This document shows positions 9,834-15,060 of a stretch of DNA of 64,000 nt, one piece after another. Under the pieces are notes generated by a model. The model had not been told where the DNA came from and did not search any database. It worked only from the letters and a program-made list of their open reading frames with translations. This DNA comes from an uncultured Verrucomicrobiae bacterium (GTDB lineage: Bacteria > Verrucomicrobiota > Verrucomicrobiia > Limisphaerales > JAFGQR01): NCBI GenBank assembly GCA_963788655.1, contig CAWBHS010000027.1:32001-96000 (forward strand), in the 5' to 3' direction. The position numbers were made by a program, and so were the translations under genes. Positions within the stretch are counted from its first letter, which is position 1, and each line of letters opens with the position of its first letter.

Positions 9834-10651
9834 AGCTGTCGGAGATGAAGCAACTGCTGGTGGCCGGCCAGATTCAGTTGACCAAGTCTCTGGGCCAAAA
9901 TTTTTTGCATGACCTCAACCAACTGCGCCGCATCGTCGAAACGGCCGGGGTGACGCCAACGGATTGCGTGTTGGAGATTGGTCCGGGGCTGGGACCGCTG
10001 ACAGAGGTGCTCCTGGCGCGGGCGAAACACGTGCTGGCCATCGAAAAAGACCAGCGGTTGGTGGCGTTGCTCCGAAAACGATTCCGCGAGGCGCAGAATT
10101 TCACGTTGATCCATGCCGACGCGGTAGATTACCTGCAACAGAAGCCGCAGGATTGGCGCGAGTGGAAACTGGTCGCGAACCTGCCGTATTCGGCGGCAAC
10201 CTCCATCCTGACCACTCTCGTGACAACCGAGCACGGTCCCCGTTTGATGGTAGTTACCGTGCAATGGGAGGTGGCGCAGCGATTGACCGCCGCGGCGGGC
10301 GCGATGGATTACGGCGTGTTGACGCTGCTGGTGCAACTTCGATATGAGCCGCAAGGATGGTTCAAGATTCCCCGGCCGTGTTTTTTTCCCGAGCCGGAAG
10401 TGGATTCGGCCGTCATCACGTTGCGGCGCCGGACGCAACCGCTGTTGTCGCCCGCCGAAGCCATAACTTTTGAACGCATCGTGCGGCTGAGTTTTTCACA
10501 GCGAAGGAAGATGATGATGAAATTGCTCAAGACCGAATGGCCAACCGAGCAATTGGTCCACGAGTTTCAAACCGTTGAACTCTCGGAGCAAGCCCGCGCG
10601 GAACAGGTAAGCCTGCAGCAGTTTGTTGCCCTGGCGAAACGGTTGGCTTAG
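9830..10651 (+). CDS. rsmA: 16S rRNA adenine dimethyltransferase
   Basis: KSLGQNFL, VLEIGPGLGPLT, VANLPY, PEPEVDSAV, FSQRRK; ATGA overlap with the upstream gene. Confidence 0.95.
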   Translation: MKLSEMKQLLVAGQIQLTKSLGQNFLHDLNQLRRIVETAGVTPTDCVLEIGPGLGPLTEVLLARAKHVLAIEKDQRLVALLRKRFREAQNFTLIHADAVDYLQQKPQDWREWKLVANLPYSAATSILTTLVTTEHGPRLMVVTVQWEVAQRLTAAAGAMDYGVLTLLVQLRYEPQGWFKIPRPCFFPEPEVDSAVITLRRRTQPLLSPAEAITFERIVRLSFSQRRKMMMKLLKTEWPTEQLVHEFQTVELSEQARAEQVSLQQFVALAKRLA

Positions 10652-10981: not shown

Positions 10982-11494
10982 ATGAACGAAGAAATCTTTG
11001 ATGTCGTCAATGAACGCGACGAAGTGATCGGCCAGCAAACCCGCCGCGAAGTGCATCGCTTGGGCCTCAAGCATCGGGCGGTTCATATTTTGGTGTTTAA
11101 CCGCAACGGCGACCTCTTTCTGCAAAAGCGTTCGATGCAGAAAGACAATCATCCCGGTGTTTGGGATTCGTCCGCCTCCGGCCATGTGGACGCGGGAGAA
11201 GACTATGACGCCGCCGCAATTCGGGAATTGCGGGAGGAGCTGGGAGTGCAGGTGCCGGCCCCACTCGAACGGTTATTCAAAATTGATTCCTGCGAGGCGA
11301 CCGGCCGCGAATTTGTTTGGGTTTACCGCTGGGCCGCGGAAGGTCCGTTGGTGCTCCACCCCGAGGAAATCGAGCGGGGCGAATGGTTCAGTCCGAACAA
11401 CGTCAGCCATTGGCTGGCCGAGCGGCCCCAGGATTTTGCCCCGGCATTTCCAGTAATTTGGAAGCGGCTACAAGCCAGGCTGGCAAGCCCTTGA
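10982..11494 (+). CDS. NUDIX hydrolase (YfcD/IPP isomerase-like)
   Basis: HRAVHILVFN..LQKRS..KD..PG.WD; Nudix box GHVDAGEDYDAAAIRELREELG. Confidence 0.9.
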   Translation: MNEEIFDVVNERDEVIGQQTRREVHRLGLKHRAVHILVFNRNGDLFLQKRSMQKDNHPGVWDSSASGHVDAGEDYDAAAIRELREELGVQVPAPLERLFKIDSCEATGREFVWVYRWAAEGPLVLHPEEIERGEWFSPNNVSHWLAERPQDFAPAFPVIWKRLQARLASP

Positions 11495-11529: not shown

Positions 11530-12129
11530 TTATGACCGTTCACGAAAATCAAGCTGATTCACCAAGGCGCCGTAACCGCGCTTCTGCAGTCGCCGAAGCG
11601 ATTCTTTGAAAGCGGTAATTTCCGCGAGTTGAATTTTAAGCCACTTCTCGTCCGCCTCATCGAACGTATCGAGTTTCAGGATATCCTCGTAATAACGTTT
11701 CGCGGACATGATCGGGCGGGCGAGATCAATGATCGTCAGCTCGCTTCCGGAATCTGAGGTGGAGTAGTTGATTCCGTAGTAGCGCTTGTGCTGCGGCAAG
11801 AACAGGAAACCCTTGCGCTTGCCTTTGAATTCGCTTTCACACCGTTTGAACGCTTCGACACTCAGACGCCCGGGGATAATAATCTGAACCAGTGTTTTCT
11901 CTGATTGAAACTGGCCCGCGGATTTGAATTGCGGCGGGTCGCAGCCTTCCACCGCGGAGTAGAGCTCAAATTGCTCCCGGTCGATGGCGGAGGAGACGGG
12001 GTCCAGGAAATTGTAAAAGTAGCCGACCGCGAGGCCCACTCCCACGACGTCCGTGTCCTGTTTATTAAGGCCATCAAAAAACTTTTCGACGGCCTTGATG
12101 CCGATTGCTGTCGCGATTTGTTCCCACAT
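11530..12129 (-). CDS. Stand-alone prokaryotic STING-like cyclic-dinucleotide receptor domain protein
   Basis: GLAVGYFYNFL, VQIIIP..L, KRYY, IIDLA, EITAFKESL occur in the order and spacing of bacterial STING motifs; 199 aa from ATG 12129. Confidence 0.7.
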   Translation of the reverse strand: MWEQIATAIGIKAVEKFFDGLNKQDTDVVGVGLAVGYFYNFLDPVSSAIDREQFELYSAVEGCDPPQFKSAGQFQSEKTLVQIIIPGRLSVEAFKRCESEFKGKRKGFLFLPQHKRYYGINYSTSDSGSELTIIDLARPIMSAKRYYEDILKLDTFDEADEKWLKIQLAEITAFKESLRRLQKRGYGALVNQLDFRERS

Positions 12130-12439
12130 AGCTAGGTTGTCAATTATTCTCCGGTTGTCTGAATTAATGCCCGGCACCGACCGGGACGCCTGCTCCGGAT
12201 CGTCCCCCCACTCGGCGGGTCACCGGCGCAACCACGGGCTTGAACATCCACCATCGAAACGGGAACTGCCAATCCAAAAGTGCCGTCCGGGCTGAATGCC
12301 GGCTGACGGCACGAGTCCACCGAAGCGGGTGCCTTCCAAGACAAACCTTGACCGACAAGGGCTGAAGTGAAATGAATTTCCTCTCGCTAAAAACAGTCTT
12401 TAGCTGACACAACGAATAACATTAGATGCATGCTTTGAT

Positions 12440-13291
12440 ATGAAACAAAAACTCATTTCCCACCTCACCCGTTCGCTGCTTGGTCTGATTGCCGGGGCAT
12501 TGGCCCTGCCAGCCGTGGCGGCGGAACCCAAGAAACTCCTGCTGGTGACCACCACCACCGGATTCCGACACAGCTCGATTCCCACGGCGGAAAAGGTCAT
12601 CCAGCAACTCGCAGCGGAAGACGGATCGTTCACCGTGGACTTGGTGCAACAACCAAAGGGCAACAGCAGAGATCCCGAGTTCCAGGACAAGATGAAGCAG
12701 GCGCTCAGCAAACTCAGCCCGGACAATCTCGCCAAATACGATGGGGTGATTTTCGCCAACACCACCGGGGATTTGCCGCTGCCCGATCCCGATGGATTTG
12801 TGAAATGGATCGAATCCGGCAAGGCCTTCATCGGCATGCACAGCGCCAGCGACACGTTCCATAACTTCCGGCCGTACATCGAAATGTTGGGCGGAGAATT
12901 CAAAGGCCACGGGGCCCAGGCCACAGTCGATTGCATCAACGAAGATCAACAATGCGCCTGCTGTCGGCATCTCGGTTCTTCCTGGACCGTGCATGATGAG
13001 ATTTACCTGATTAAAAGCTTCGAGCGCTCCAACGTCCACATGCTGCTGGGCCTGGACAAGGAACCCAACAAAAAGACGCCCGGATACTTCCCCGTTTCCT
13101 GGTGCAAGAACGCGGGCAAAGGCCGGGTGTTCTATACCTCGCTGGGCCATCGCGAAGACGTGTGGGATGACAAATATCCGAACCGGCAGAATTCGCCCGA
13201 AGTGGCCAAAGCGTATCAGCAGCACATCTTGAACGGTATCAAATGGGCCTTGGGCCTCGTGCCGGGAAGTGCGACCCCGCAAGCGAAGTAA
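12440..13291 (+). CDS. ThuA-like domain protein, secreted
   Basis: Signal peptide; GFRHSSIP, FANTTG, FIGMHSASDT, DEIY, GRVFYTSLGH. Confidence 0.85.
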   Translation: MKQKLISHLTRSLLGLIAGALALPAVAAEPKKLLLVTTTTGFRHSSIPTAEKVIQQLAAEDGSFTVDLVQQPKGNSRDPEFQDKMKQALSKLSPDNLAKYDGVIFANTTGDLPLPDPDGFVKWIESGKAFIGMHSASDTFHNFRPYIEMLGGEFKGHGAQATVDCINEDQQCACCRHLGSSWTVHDEIYLIKSFERSNVHMLLGLDKEPNKKTPGYFPVSWCKNAGKGRVFYTSLGHREDVWDDKYPNRQNSPEVAKAYQQHILNGIKWALGLVPGSATPQAK

Positions 13292-14133: not shown

Positions 14134-15060
14134 CTACCCAAATCGTTGCCGCGCCGATTCAATGTCGCGGGCAATTTGGACTTTCAACGCATCCAATGAA
14201 GCGAACTTCTGTTCGTCGCGTAACTTGTCCACGAAGGTCAGTTCCAGTTCCTGCCCGTAAAGGTCACCTGGAAATCGAGCAAATGGGCTTCGACCCGCAA
14301 TTGGGGCTCGGGGTGCGCAAGGGTAGGCCGGTACCCGACGTTGAGCACCGCCCGGTAGGTGCGGCCGGCAGCGCTGGCATGCACGGCATAAACTCCGTTG
14401 GGCGGCAAGGCGAGCCCTGTGGTAGCGAGATTGGCCGTGGGGAATCCCAGTTGACGCCCAACCTGATCGCCTTGGACCACCCGTCCGGCCAGCGAATACG
14501 CCCGCCCCAACATCTGACTGGCGGCATCCAATTGCCCCAGCCGAATCGCCTCGCGAATCCGGGTGCTGCGAATGGCCTGGCCTTCAAGCGACACGGCCGA
14601 CAGACTATGGACTTGGAAGTGAAACTCTTGGCCAAACTGCTTCAGCAACGCCACGTTGCCGCTGCGTTTGTGGCCGAAATGAAAATCGCTGCCCACGCAC
14701 ACGCTTTGTAGTCGCCCGAGATCACCCACCAAAGCCACGCACAAACTCCTCGCCGGATTGGCGGCTGAGTTCTGGGGTAAAGGCGAGCAGCAAGGTGGCG
14801 TCTACTTCCAGCGAAGCGATGGCCCGCAGCTTTTGGGGGAGGGAATAAATCAGGCGCGGCACGCGCGCGGGGGCGACTACTGCATTAGGATGGCGGTCGA
14901 ACGTGACCACCACGCTGAGGCCCTCGTGCTGTTTGGCGTCAGCCATCGTGGTGCGGATGATTTGCTGGTGACCCAAATGCACGCCATCGAAGAAGCCGAT
15001 GGCCAGGCACACCCGTCGTCCGTGGGGCCGCAGTTCGGTGGCCGCATGAACGGTTCTCAT
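14134..15060 (-). CDS. ribF: Bifunctional riboflavin kinase/FAD synthetase (frameshifts near 14735 and 14268)
   Basis: GFFDGVHLGHQ, VGSDFHFGH, GRQLGFPTAN, NVGYRPT, VEAHLLDF, then GDLYGQ..LRDEQKF in a third frame. Confidence 0.9.

Follow-up and report, generated by a model that had tools for sequence, protein, structure and literature searches.

What does a bacterial STING receptor do when it carries no effector domain and has no cyclase beside it? The question is raised by a gene of an uncultured Verrucomicrobiae bacterium (order Limisphaerales; GenBank assembly GCA_963788655.1, contig CAWBHS010000027.1, positions 32,001 to 96,000), in a stretch of 64,000 nucleotides referred to here as the window. 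As far as the consulted portions of the literature go, bacterial STINGs are TIR fusions, rare transmembrane (TM) fusions (Cap13) or fusions to other enzymes, and are discussed as effectors of cyclic-oligonucleotide-based anti-phage signalling systems (CBASS) (PMC10732462; PMC8748872; PMC12421889). They are likewise treated as CBASS effectors, paired with a cGAS/DncV-like nucleotidyltransferase (CD-NTase), in two further studies (PMC8204762; PMC10739871). Literature searches found no description of a bacterial STING clade lacking both effector and cyclase, Morehouse 2020 and Burroughs & Aravind 2020 lying outside their reach. The gene in the window is intact and under selection, and its product is a complete stand-alone prokaryotic STING protein. 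Judged by its homologues, it belongs to a family of about 195 amino acids (aa) that is widespread and strongly conserved, a point that the initial annotation of this DNA, made from the letters alone, had missed.

The gene is monocistronic and encodes 199 aa plus a stop codon. Its minus-strand open reading frame (ORF) spans 11530..12177 and would give 215 aa if counted from an upstream GTG, but all homologues start at a Met equivalent to the ATG at 12129 (MWEQIA...). The limits proposed by the initial annotation, 11530 to 12129, are therefore right. Residue numbers refer to the 199-aa protein, whose parts are as follows.

11530..12129, minus strand: complete coding sequence of the 199-aa STING protein (P0001), from the ORF list, homologue starts, PF20300 and fold.
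12046..12129, minus strand: N-terminal segment, residues 1-28, an amphipathic helix plus linker, from DSSP, hydrophobicity and conservation.
11596..12039, minus strand: STING cyclic-dinucleotide-binding domain, residues 31-178, from PF20300 (47-194 of the 215-aa ORF) and profile alignment to 7ebl, 8hwi, 8hwj and 9lmq.
12004..12036, minus strand: stem helix motif G32-LAVGYFYNF-L42 including the base-stacking F38, from invariant residues; aligns with 'AIGYFENL' of 7ebl.
11776..11784, minus strand: beta-lid R116-Y117-Y118, class I RX(Y/F), codons CGC TAC TAC; aligns with R-N-Y of 7ebl.
11713..11727, minus strand: D135-L-A-R-P139 motif, codons GAT CTC GCC CGC CCG; aligns with D-M-P-T-T of 7ebl.
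11533..11595, minus strand: residues 179-199 (LQKRGYGALVNQLDFRERS), a conserved C-terminal extension whose last element is a beta-strand, from alignment and model.

The assignment to STING is supported at several levels. Pfam places the protein in PF20300 (prok_STING) with an E-value of 9.1e-11 and 42.4 bits, against a curated cut-off of 27.1 (42.9 bits in the whole-genome search). A search with the single sequence barely reaches a solved structure (7ebl, E 0.83); a profile built from 31 family members matches the solved bacterial STINGs 7ebl (1.3e-6), 8hwi, 8hwj and 9lmq. The AlphaFold2 model, built on the family alignment, has a predicted local distance difference test (pLDDT) score of 84.8 and a predicted template-modelling score (pTM) of 0.80. 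The best Foldseek matches of this model are exclusively bacterial STINGs, with 7ebl_B first (E 4.3e-7, TM-score 0.76 by target length), followed by 7un9, 9lmr, 8hwi, 8hwj and 6wt5; these bacterial matches have a probability of 1.00 and TM-scores of 0.70-0.76 by target length, and animal STINGs come lower down. A look-up in the ESM Atlas returned unnamed clusters with low recognition. The motifs on which the initial annotation had based its proposal (GLAVGYFYNFL at 32-42, and those within QIIIPGR, HKRYYGINY, TIIDLARP and AEITAFKESL) are all found in the translation, and the STING fold that it had read from them is borne out by PF20300 and by the comparison of the model with bacterial STING structures.

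No TIR, enzymatic or TM module was recognised in the protein, as had also been claimed. Pfam gives no match to a TIR domain, the PADLOC TIR-STING model aligns only over its positions 157-295 of 310, which are its STING part, and the NCBIfam Cap12 model likewise covers the STING part only, at 17.3 bits against a cut-off of 450. The TIR-STINGs (Cap12; the class I 7ebl/7ebd of Ko et al. 2022, SfSTING 7un8/7un9, 9lmq/9lmr) offer the closest solved comparison: they have the same fold (Foldseek E 4e-7 to 2e-6), and their STING domains are the best sequence matches of the family in the PDB. Lid type (class I, RX(Y/F)), stacking Phe and pocket Asp are all shared, and a stem-helix dimer is predicted for the window protein as well. 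Unlike the TIR-STINGs, the window protein has no TIR domain and no adjacent CD-NTase, reads D-L-A-R-P for D-M-P-T-T, has an insertion of ~10-18 residues between alpha1 and the lid, and bears an extra N-terminal helix and an extra C-terminal strand.

A short STING without an effector domain could be the end of a longer gene that has been cut, and here the immediate surroundings matter.

12130..12439, no strand assigned: intergenic spacer of 310 bp between the STING and ThuA genes, in which minus-strand ORFs are short, out of frame and non-hydrophobic.
10982-11494, plus strand: convergent NUDIX hydrolase gene (Pfam NUDIX, 1.2e-21), context only.
12440-13291, plus strand: divergent ThuA gene (Pfam ThuA, 1.1e-41), context only.

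No remnant of TIR or TM coding sequence was found in the upstream spacer (12130..12439). A word-indexed search gave 86 homologue clusters (E 3.7e-127 to 2e-22), nearly all of 192-208 aa, and 84 of them are annotated with PF20300 only. The index-free phmmer search of 1.84 billion protein representatives returned 78 matches, the longest of at most 264 aa, so no close relative is fused to a TIR domain or an enzyme. Homologue lengths, the common start and the spacer without a remnant rule out a truncated TIR- or TM-STING, and the protein is complete, as the initial annotation had supposed. The source names of the homologues include Methylomirabilota, Ignavibacteriales, Puniceicoccaceae, Flavisolibacter and Ferruginibacter; the family abounds in Verrucomicrobiota, Bacteroidota, Proteobacteria and other groups from soil and freshwater, and some members are publicly annotated already as 'STING domain-containing protein'. 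At one locus (L055), two STING genes of the family stand in tandem, at 898-1455 and 1574-2164, and each product shares about 47% identity with the window protein.

Selection on the family bears on a further explanation, namely that the gene is a decaying, functionless remnant of a CBASS operon that has lost its cyclase. The missing cyclase would agree with this, as would one broken copy elsewhere, L017, the only one among 17 genome loci, where the gene is split into ORFs at 9998-10252 and 10249-10596 amid small same-strand ORFs including DUF4406. The frame is intact in the window and in 16 of the 17 genome loci, and the same architecture recurs in 86 clusters, with 34 columns of the family alignment invariant across phyla (including G119, N121 and Y122). 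Across 11 pairs with relatives, the proportion of differing nonsynonymous sites (pN) is 0.11-0.28 and that of synonymous sites (pS) 0.67-0.90; synonymous sites are saturated while the proteins are still 57-83% identical, and dN/dS is 0.125-0.15 in the four of the 11 pairs with a computable dS. Decay is therefore a very improbable account of this gene.

The next question is what such a protein might bind. According to the consulted portions of Ko et al. (2022), bacterial STINGs fall into classes defined by the lid, RX(Y/F) in class I and RXR in class II, and class I specificity for cyclic di-GMP (c-di-GMP) comes from a Phe/Leu-guanine-Tyr/Phe-Arg stack together with an Asp on guanine N2 (PMC8748872). 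Profile alignment to the c-di-GMP-bound 7ebl pairs GYF(38) with GYF, R116-Y-Y118 with R-N-Y, and D135 with the Asp of D-M-P-T-T. None of the 31 aligned sequences departs from R116 or Y118, and D135, L136, R138 and P139 are likewise invariant in their motif, D135 occupying the Asp position that reads guanine N2 in class I STINGs. In the stem helix, G36, Y37, Y39, N40, F41 and L42 are invariant in the family alignment. The class I, c-di-GMP-type determinants (F38, R116-x-Y118 and D135) are thus all kept, without variation in the family, and binding of this ligand is predicted. The initial annotation was correct that the usual DxPT motif reads DLAR here, since TIR-STING structures have D-M/I-P-T-T where the window protein has D-L-A-R-P. 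Its suggestion of an altered ligand preference is not supported, because the c-di-GMP-specificity residues given in the portions of Ko et al. (2022) consulted (PMC8748872) are all conserved and the variant is clade-wide. D-x-x-R-P is common to TM-bearing relatives (DVVRP, DLVRP) and to a relative embedded in a CBASS operon at locus L016 (DYVRP), and is therefore a trait of the clade rather than a sign of orphanhood.

Outside the pocket, residues 1-28 are the sole non-STING element at the N-terminus. DSSP on the model gives a helix at 2-19 with a pLDDT of about 60, and a linker at 21-25 with a pLDDT below 50. The initial annotation had described an amphipathic segment of ~25 aa before the STING domain; it is indeed present, with about 28 residues and an Eisenberg hydrophobic moment (muH) of 0.54. 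Its mean hydrophobicity (<H>) is -0.09, against about 0.8 in TM relatives, and its best 19-mer Kyte-Doolittle (KD) mean of 0.48 is not that of a TM helix. A6, G10 and F18 of this segment are invariant or nearly so. At the other end, the C-terminal extension lies outside the Pfam and PDB alignments, with L181, G185, G187, L193 and F195 invariant and a strand predicted at 193-198 (pLDDT about 89).

A homodimer model co-folded with c-di-GMP reaches an interface score (ipSAE) of 0.79, against 0.00 for the best of three controls. Of 30 proteins solved as one-chain pairs, 20 reach the benchmark mark for this score, as does one of the 23 solved as single chains. At least 90% of contacts are shared between runs, the partner pLDDT is at least 81, and stem residues 29-40 form the core of the predicted interface. 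Because STING dimers have already been solved, this pass may reflect likeness to known structures. The N-helix is absent from the solved structures; in the dimer model, its residues 2-18 are predicted to contact partner residues 28, 31 and 173.

Whether this short architecture is ancestral or reduced can be addressed through the nearest relatives of the clade, which are single-pass TM-STINGs. Among the close family (P0001-P0084), N-terminal 19-mer KD means are 0.02-1.5, below TM level, the exception being P0052, which reaches 2.03 in an N-terminal extension whose start may be over-called. In many of the more distant relatives, which are 200-245 aa long, one helix is strongly hydrophobic (means of 1.7-2.6). 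A maximum-likelihood tree of 61 rows unites the TM-less clade with support of 100/99; its 40 rows (two with hydrophobic extensions) are nested among single-pass TM-STING branches, with L016 in a basal sub-branch and the window protein in the crown. Because the tree was rooted at its midpoint and has a long TIR-STING branch, the direction of the TM change is inferred and not proven. One sub-branch (P0101, P0106, P0117 and P0092) has a Gly-rich hydrophobic helix in addition to an amphipathic helix. A single-pass TM-STING at L063 (2620-4524) has a second STING match about 800 bp downstream.

TM-STINGs (Cap13), such as the two-TM protein of L082, resemble the window protein in being short and in consisting of one or more N-terminal helices plus STING, with no enzymatic domain. 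The N-helix of the window protein is amphipathic (KD 0.48), whereas that of TM relatives reaches 1.7-2.6, and L082 adjoins a CdnE-type cyclase, which the window gene does not. The solved Cap13 cyclic-dinucleotide-binding domain 6wt5 is a weaker structural match than the TIR-STING domains and is not reached by the family profile; 6wt4 is presumably another such structure. The function of the N-terminal part of Cap13 is not known in the portions of the literature consulted (PMC10732462; PMC12421889).

The absence of a cyclase has to be judged against the sensitivity of the searches. No CD-NTase was found in the window's own genome (86% complete, 5.6% contamination) with PF18144, PF21654, PDLC00784, PDLC00780 or A2, a profile built from six Bacteroidota STING-adjacent cyclases plus the L016 cyclase, several of these searches being without an independent positive control. 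A six-frame scan of the 64-kb window with A2 gave nothing at E <= 1. The initial claim of no neighbouring cyclase therefore stands, and none is detectable in the 86%-complete genome either. As a control, 12 of 401 Bacteroidota genomes carry PF20300, and in the 11 besides that of L012 the Pfam SMODS model (PF18144) saw no STING-adjacent cyclase. Six of those 11 loci (five TIR-STINGs and one two-TM STING) do have a directly adjacent cyclase gene of 342-365 aa, for which Pfam gives SMODS at E 0.006, NTP_transf_2 at 1e-4 to 4e-3, or nothing, and PADLOC scores the four that were tested (L075, L076, L079 and L082) at 1e-109 to 1e-147. PF18144 is near-blind to STING-linked cyclases, missing or barely seeing those adjacent to STING in the canonical loci L075-L079 and L082, and was rejected as a cyclase detector; the count of SMODS in 4 of 17 carrier genomes and the Pfam flank screens are therefore weak negatives. 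In the 17 carrier genomes, A2 found nothing in 16, its single match being L016's own cyclase, and on six-frame translations of all studied loci it found nothing besides its own training rows, which make up its positives. A leave-out profile of five rows recovered L082 (7.6e-94) and not the L016 cyclase, so the reach of A2 across CD-NTase clades is limited and others could be missed.

How relatives are placed in their genomes is informative in two directions. The 17 genome loci come from species-representative genomes of Verrucomicrobiota, Bacteroidota and Proteobacteria, with one labelled Methylomirabilota. Pfam on 140 ORFs within +-4.5 kb finds housekeeping genes, with a cyclase in two loci only, L012 and L016. 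No CD-NTase was thus detected beside 15 of the 17 genome loci. At L016, the gene for a 200-aa STING lies 18 nt upstream of a cyclase gene (PADLOC 5.3e-81), which an E2 gene overlaps in turn (1.2e-50), and gene content marks the locus as a true STING/CD-NTase/E2 CBASS operon of type II (E2-only), with no effector candidate other than the TM-less STING. The L016 STING falls in the same clade as the window protein (100/99), is 38% identical to it and of the same length, has a non-TM N-helix (KD 0.66) and shares D-x-x-R-P and the C-terminal G-x-G...F strand; it differs in being encoded directly upstream of a CD-NTase and E2, and its lid reads R-P-Y. The L012 cyclase lies 600 bp downstream of STING with its own small hydrophobic ORF directly upstream, and PADLOC gives it the type of a genome G006 cyclase that is paired with a two-TM effector; it probably belongs to a neighbouring type I CBASS and is not the partner of STING. 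That G006 cyclase is part of a defence cluster (L071, contig C302, 1832-7890) with AbiTii, the type I CBASS (two-TM effector plus cyclase) and a capH/capP-like regulator pair, on another contig than the STING gene of the same genome.

The L016 operon is the strongest support for the reading that we favour, at a probability of roughly 40%, in which the protein is a cyclase-independent, ligand-gated minimal STING effector, since the same architecture is the sole effector candidate there. Under this reading, the protein would form a V-shaped STING homodimer via the GLAVGYFYNFL stem and would bind one 3',3' cyclic dinucleotide, most likely c-di-GMP, beneath the beta-lid. Closure of the lid could then drive self-assembly, as in TIR-STING filaments. 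The only possible outputs would be the assembly itself and the conserved N-terminal amphipathic helices, which sit where the nearest relatives have their TM helix and are packed on the partner subunit in the model; if freed or clustered, they might perturb the membrane and arrest growth. The protein would thus have remained a minimal CBASS-type effector after the loss of its dedicated cyclase and would sense a dinucleotide made in trans, whether by the cell's own PAS-GGDEF and 7TMR-GGDEF cyclases, by another system or by an invader. The patchy, accessory distribution of the gene, which is present in one of 60 genomes of the same order, and its lower GC content (0.525, against 0.586 for the 64-kb window) fit such a defence-like effector.

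The remaining loci bring in an explanation that is nearly as likely, a non-toxic single-domain receptor or buffer. Here the clade would have left CBASS and been domesticated, binding housekeeping c-di-GMP or c-di-AMP, and would either buffer the pool as a sponge or pass the signal on, by protein-protein contact of its N-helix and C-terminal strand, to a widely conserved partner that is not linked to it; we regard this as a serious possibility. The initial annotation had listed a sensor, a sponge, action through the N-terminal helix and a partner in trans, four alternatives among which the sequence does not discriminate. Small dinucleotide binders with no output domain, such as PilZ-only proteins, DarA/PstA and phage Acb2/Tad1, work by sequestering their ligand or by contacting other proteins. 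Their folds are unrelated to STING, and the analogy with this reading is a functional one. Of the metagenome loci, 42 were retrieved, seven duplicates were dropped and four had no flanking ORF of at least 90 aa, leaving 31. The lack of a linked cyclase in 15 of 17 genome loci favours a receptor, as does the lack of SMODS among the 116 flanking ORFs of these 31 metagenome loci in a Pfam search (near-blind here), together with the six-frame A2 scan, which found no STING-linked cyclase type beyond its training rows. No conserved neighbour gene was found among the 17 genome loci: in an all-vs-all BLAST comparison of ORFs within +-8 kb, STING alone was common to more than two loci. The contexts are housekeeping ones, and an arrangement of Aldedh, STING and GH127 recurs in the Verrucomicrobial loci L005, L035 and L036, with L040 and L057 showing the Aldedh side. 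The loss of the TM helix and very strong purifying selection over the full length, including surfaces outside the pocket, point the same way, and the solved structures of bacterial STINGs include a complex with c-di-AMP (8hwj). Set against a receptor are that no partner has been identified, that L016, the basal relative, clearly belongs to a CBASS system, and that the pocket residues are those of c-di-GMP-specific effectors, with no new specificity.

The window fits this housekeeping picture. The neighbours are a convergent NUDIX gene, separated from the 3' end of STING by a gap of 35 bp, and a divergent ThuA gene, as the initial annotation had said, and beyond them lie genes for a class III aminotransferase, RsmA, a 3-keto-disaccharide hydrolase, RibF and TruB. 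NUDIX and ThuA were considered as functional partners and rejected: neither is conserved beside homologues, and no NUDIX-like ORF clustered across the 17 loci. A consensus promoter and terminator scan gave nothing useful for the STING gene, with no promoter-like minus-strand site above threshold in 12130..12439. A look-up of sequencing runs listed no RNA run with this sequence, only DNA runs from a single study, each with a small share of it. The RibF gene (FAD synthetase plus riboflavin kinase; 14238-15060, minus strand) is split into two overlapping ORFs, 14722-15060 matching FAD_syn 6-99 and 14238-14744 matching FAD_syn 107-158 plus Flavokinase 1-88 of 124, as a frameshift or a fault in the assembly would produce. 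Orphan STINGs may also occur outside the TM-less clade. At L080 (5003-5968) and L081 (4589-5515), genes of TIR-STING length (308-321 aa) have no cyclase within about +-3 kb, their neighbours being a caspase-domain gene and an M23 peptidase at L080 and a TIR_2 plus cold-shock-domain gene at L081.

Which dinucleotide would be available can be approached through the synthases of the carriers. The window's own genome encodes two diguanylate cyclases, a PAS-GGDEF and a 7TMR-DISM-GGDEF protein, and one diadenylate cyclase (DAC); GGEEF is intact in both of the former, which are apparently active. Both GGDEF genes lie on one contig (G000:C90; L019 and L020), a same-genus genome has none, and, with 5.6% contamination of the assembly, contig C90 may or may not belong to this organism. 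Among the 17 other carriers, GGDEF occurs in six and DAC in 11, and two (G007 and G008) show none of GGDEF, DAC and SMODS. No synthase is universal among carriers, so co-occurrence cannot name the ligand. Coexistence with intact GGDEF enzymes and DAC in the window's own genome, and with one or the other in many carriers, agrees with a domesticated receptor; G007 and G008 do not, and the presence of the gene in only one of 60 same-order genomes would be unusual for a housekeeping regulator.

The same-genus genome (G018) lacks the gene and is not syntenic at the STING site, so an empty-site comparison gave no conclusion. The sole same-order carrier, G074 (C449, 3409-3990), has the same contig coordinates as L003, whose taxonomic label is of another phylum than most of its close relatives; label and grouping by kinship may disagree there.

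The scarcity of GGDEF in the order (15 of 60 relatives) and its absence from 11 of the 17 carriers are what one would expect of a cyclase-independent sentinel. In lineages making little or no c-di-GMP, an orphan STING of this kind would sense dinucleotides of foreign origin (phages, mobile elements or neighbouring bacteria) and trigger protection, and it would parallel the role proposed for choanoflagellate STINGs without cGLRs. In the portions of that study consulted, stand-alone choanoflagellate STINGs lacking a cGLR bind 3'3'-c-di-GMP, and its authors suggest detection of bacterial ligands (bioRxiv 10.1101/2025.09.04.674280). On the same partial basis, the likeness is that of a genome without a dedicated cyclase, and of a c-di-GMP specificity measured there and predicted here; the choanoflagellate proteins differ in being eukaryotic and four-TM, and 'standalone' there means without a cGLR, not without an N-terminal module. 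The gene also travels on its own, without any conserved neighbour. We consider a sentinel unlikely: the window's own genome has two GGDEF cyclases, no evidence was found for a ligand source borne by phages or mobile genetic elements, and the proposal overlaps with the minimal-effector mechanism, from which it differs in signal source only. Searches of IMG/VR viral contigs, of 50,697 phage records and of 72,556 plasmids turned up no relative. The Acb2/Tad1 sponges are phage-encoded, unlike this family, and a phage-borne anti-CBASS sponge was rejected on the strength of these searches.

Several points weigh against the minimal effector. A lethal effector triggered by c-di-GMP should be hard to tolerate in a cell with two GGDEF cyclases, and six of the 17 other carriers have GGDEF as well. 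The neighbourhoods consist of housekeeping genes and are not defence islands, and no cyclase was found in the window's own genome, at 86% completeness. The N-helix lacks TM-level hydrophobicity and could be purely structural, because it is buried against alpha4 of the partner in the model. Some TM-bearing members carry both helices, so it is uncertain whether the amphipathic helix descended from the TM helix or from a connector. The strongest objection is the coexistence with ordinary diguanylate cyclases in housekeeping contexts.

A broader possibility, which we put forward tentatively, is that the clade as a whole has abandoned anti-phage CBASS and now works as an autonomous single-domain receptor without effector domain, membrane anchor or dedicated cyclase, serving either as a housekeeping receptor or buffer for c-di-GMP or c-di-AMP, with a conserved partner encoded elsewhere, or as a sentinel for foreign dinucleotides. 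If so, this would be the first function of a bacterial STING outside a cyclase-effector operon, and it would mirror among prokaryotes the 'standalone STING' stage that has been proposed for early eukaryotes. Morehouse et al. (2020) reportedly argued that ordinary c-di-GMP signalling is incompatible with STING-based defence, and this family coexists with such signalling in some hosts. The protein is small, predicted to be soluble and experimentally easy, and could show what a STING domain does alone and how TM-STINGs signal. It would also offer a model for the decoupling of a defence receptor from its synthase, a step also inferred in the history of eukaryotic STING.

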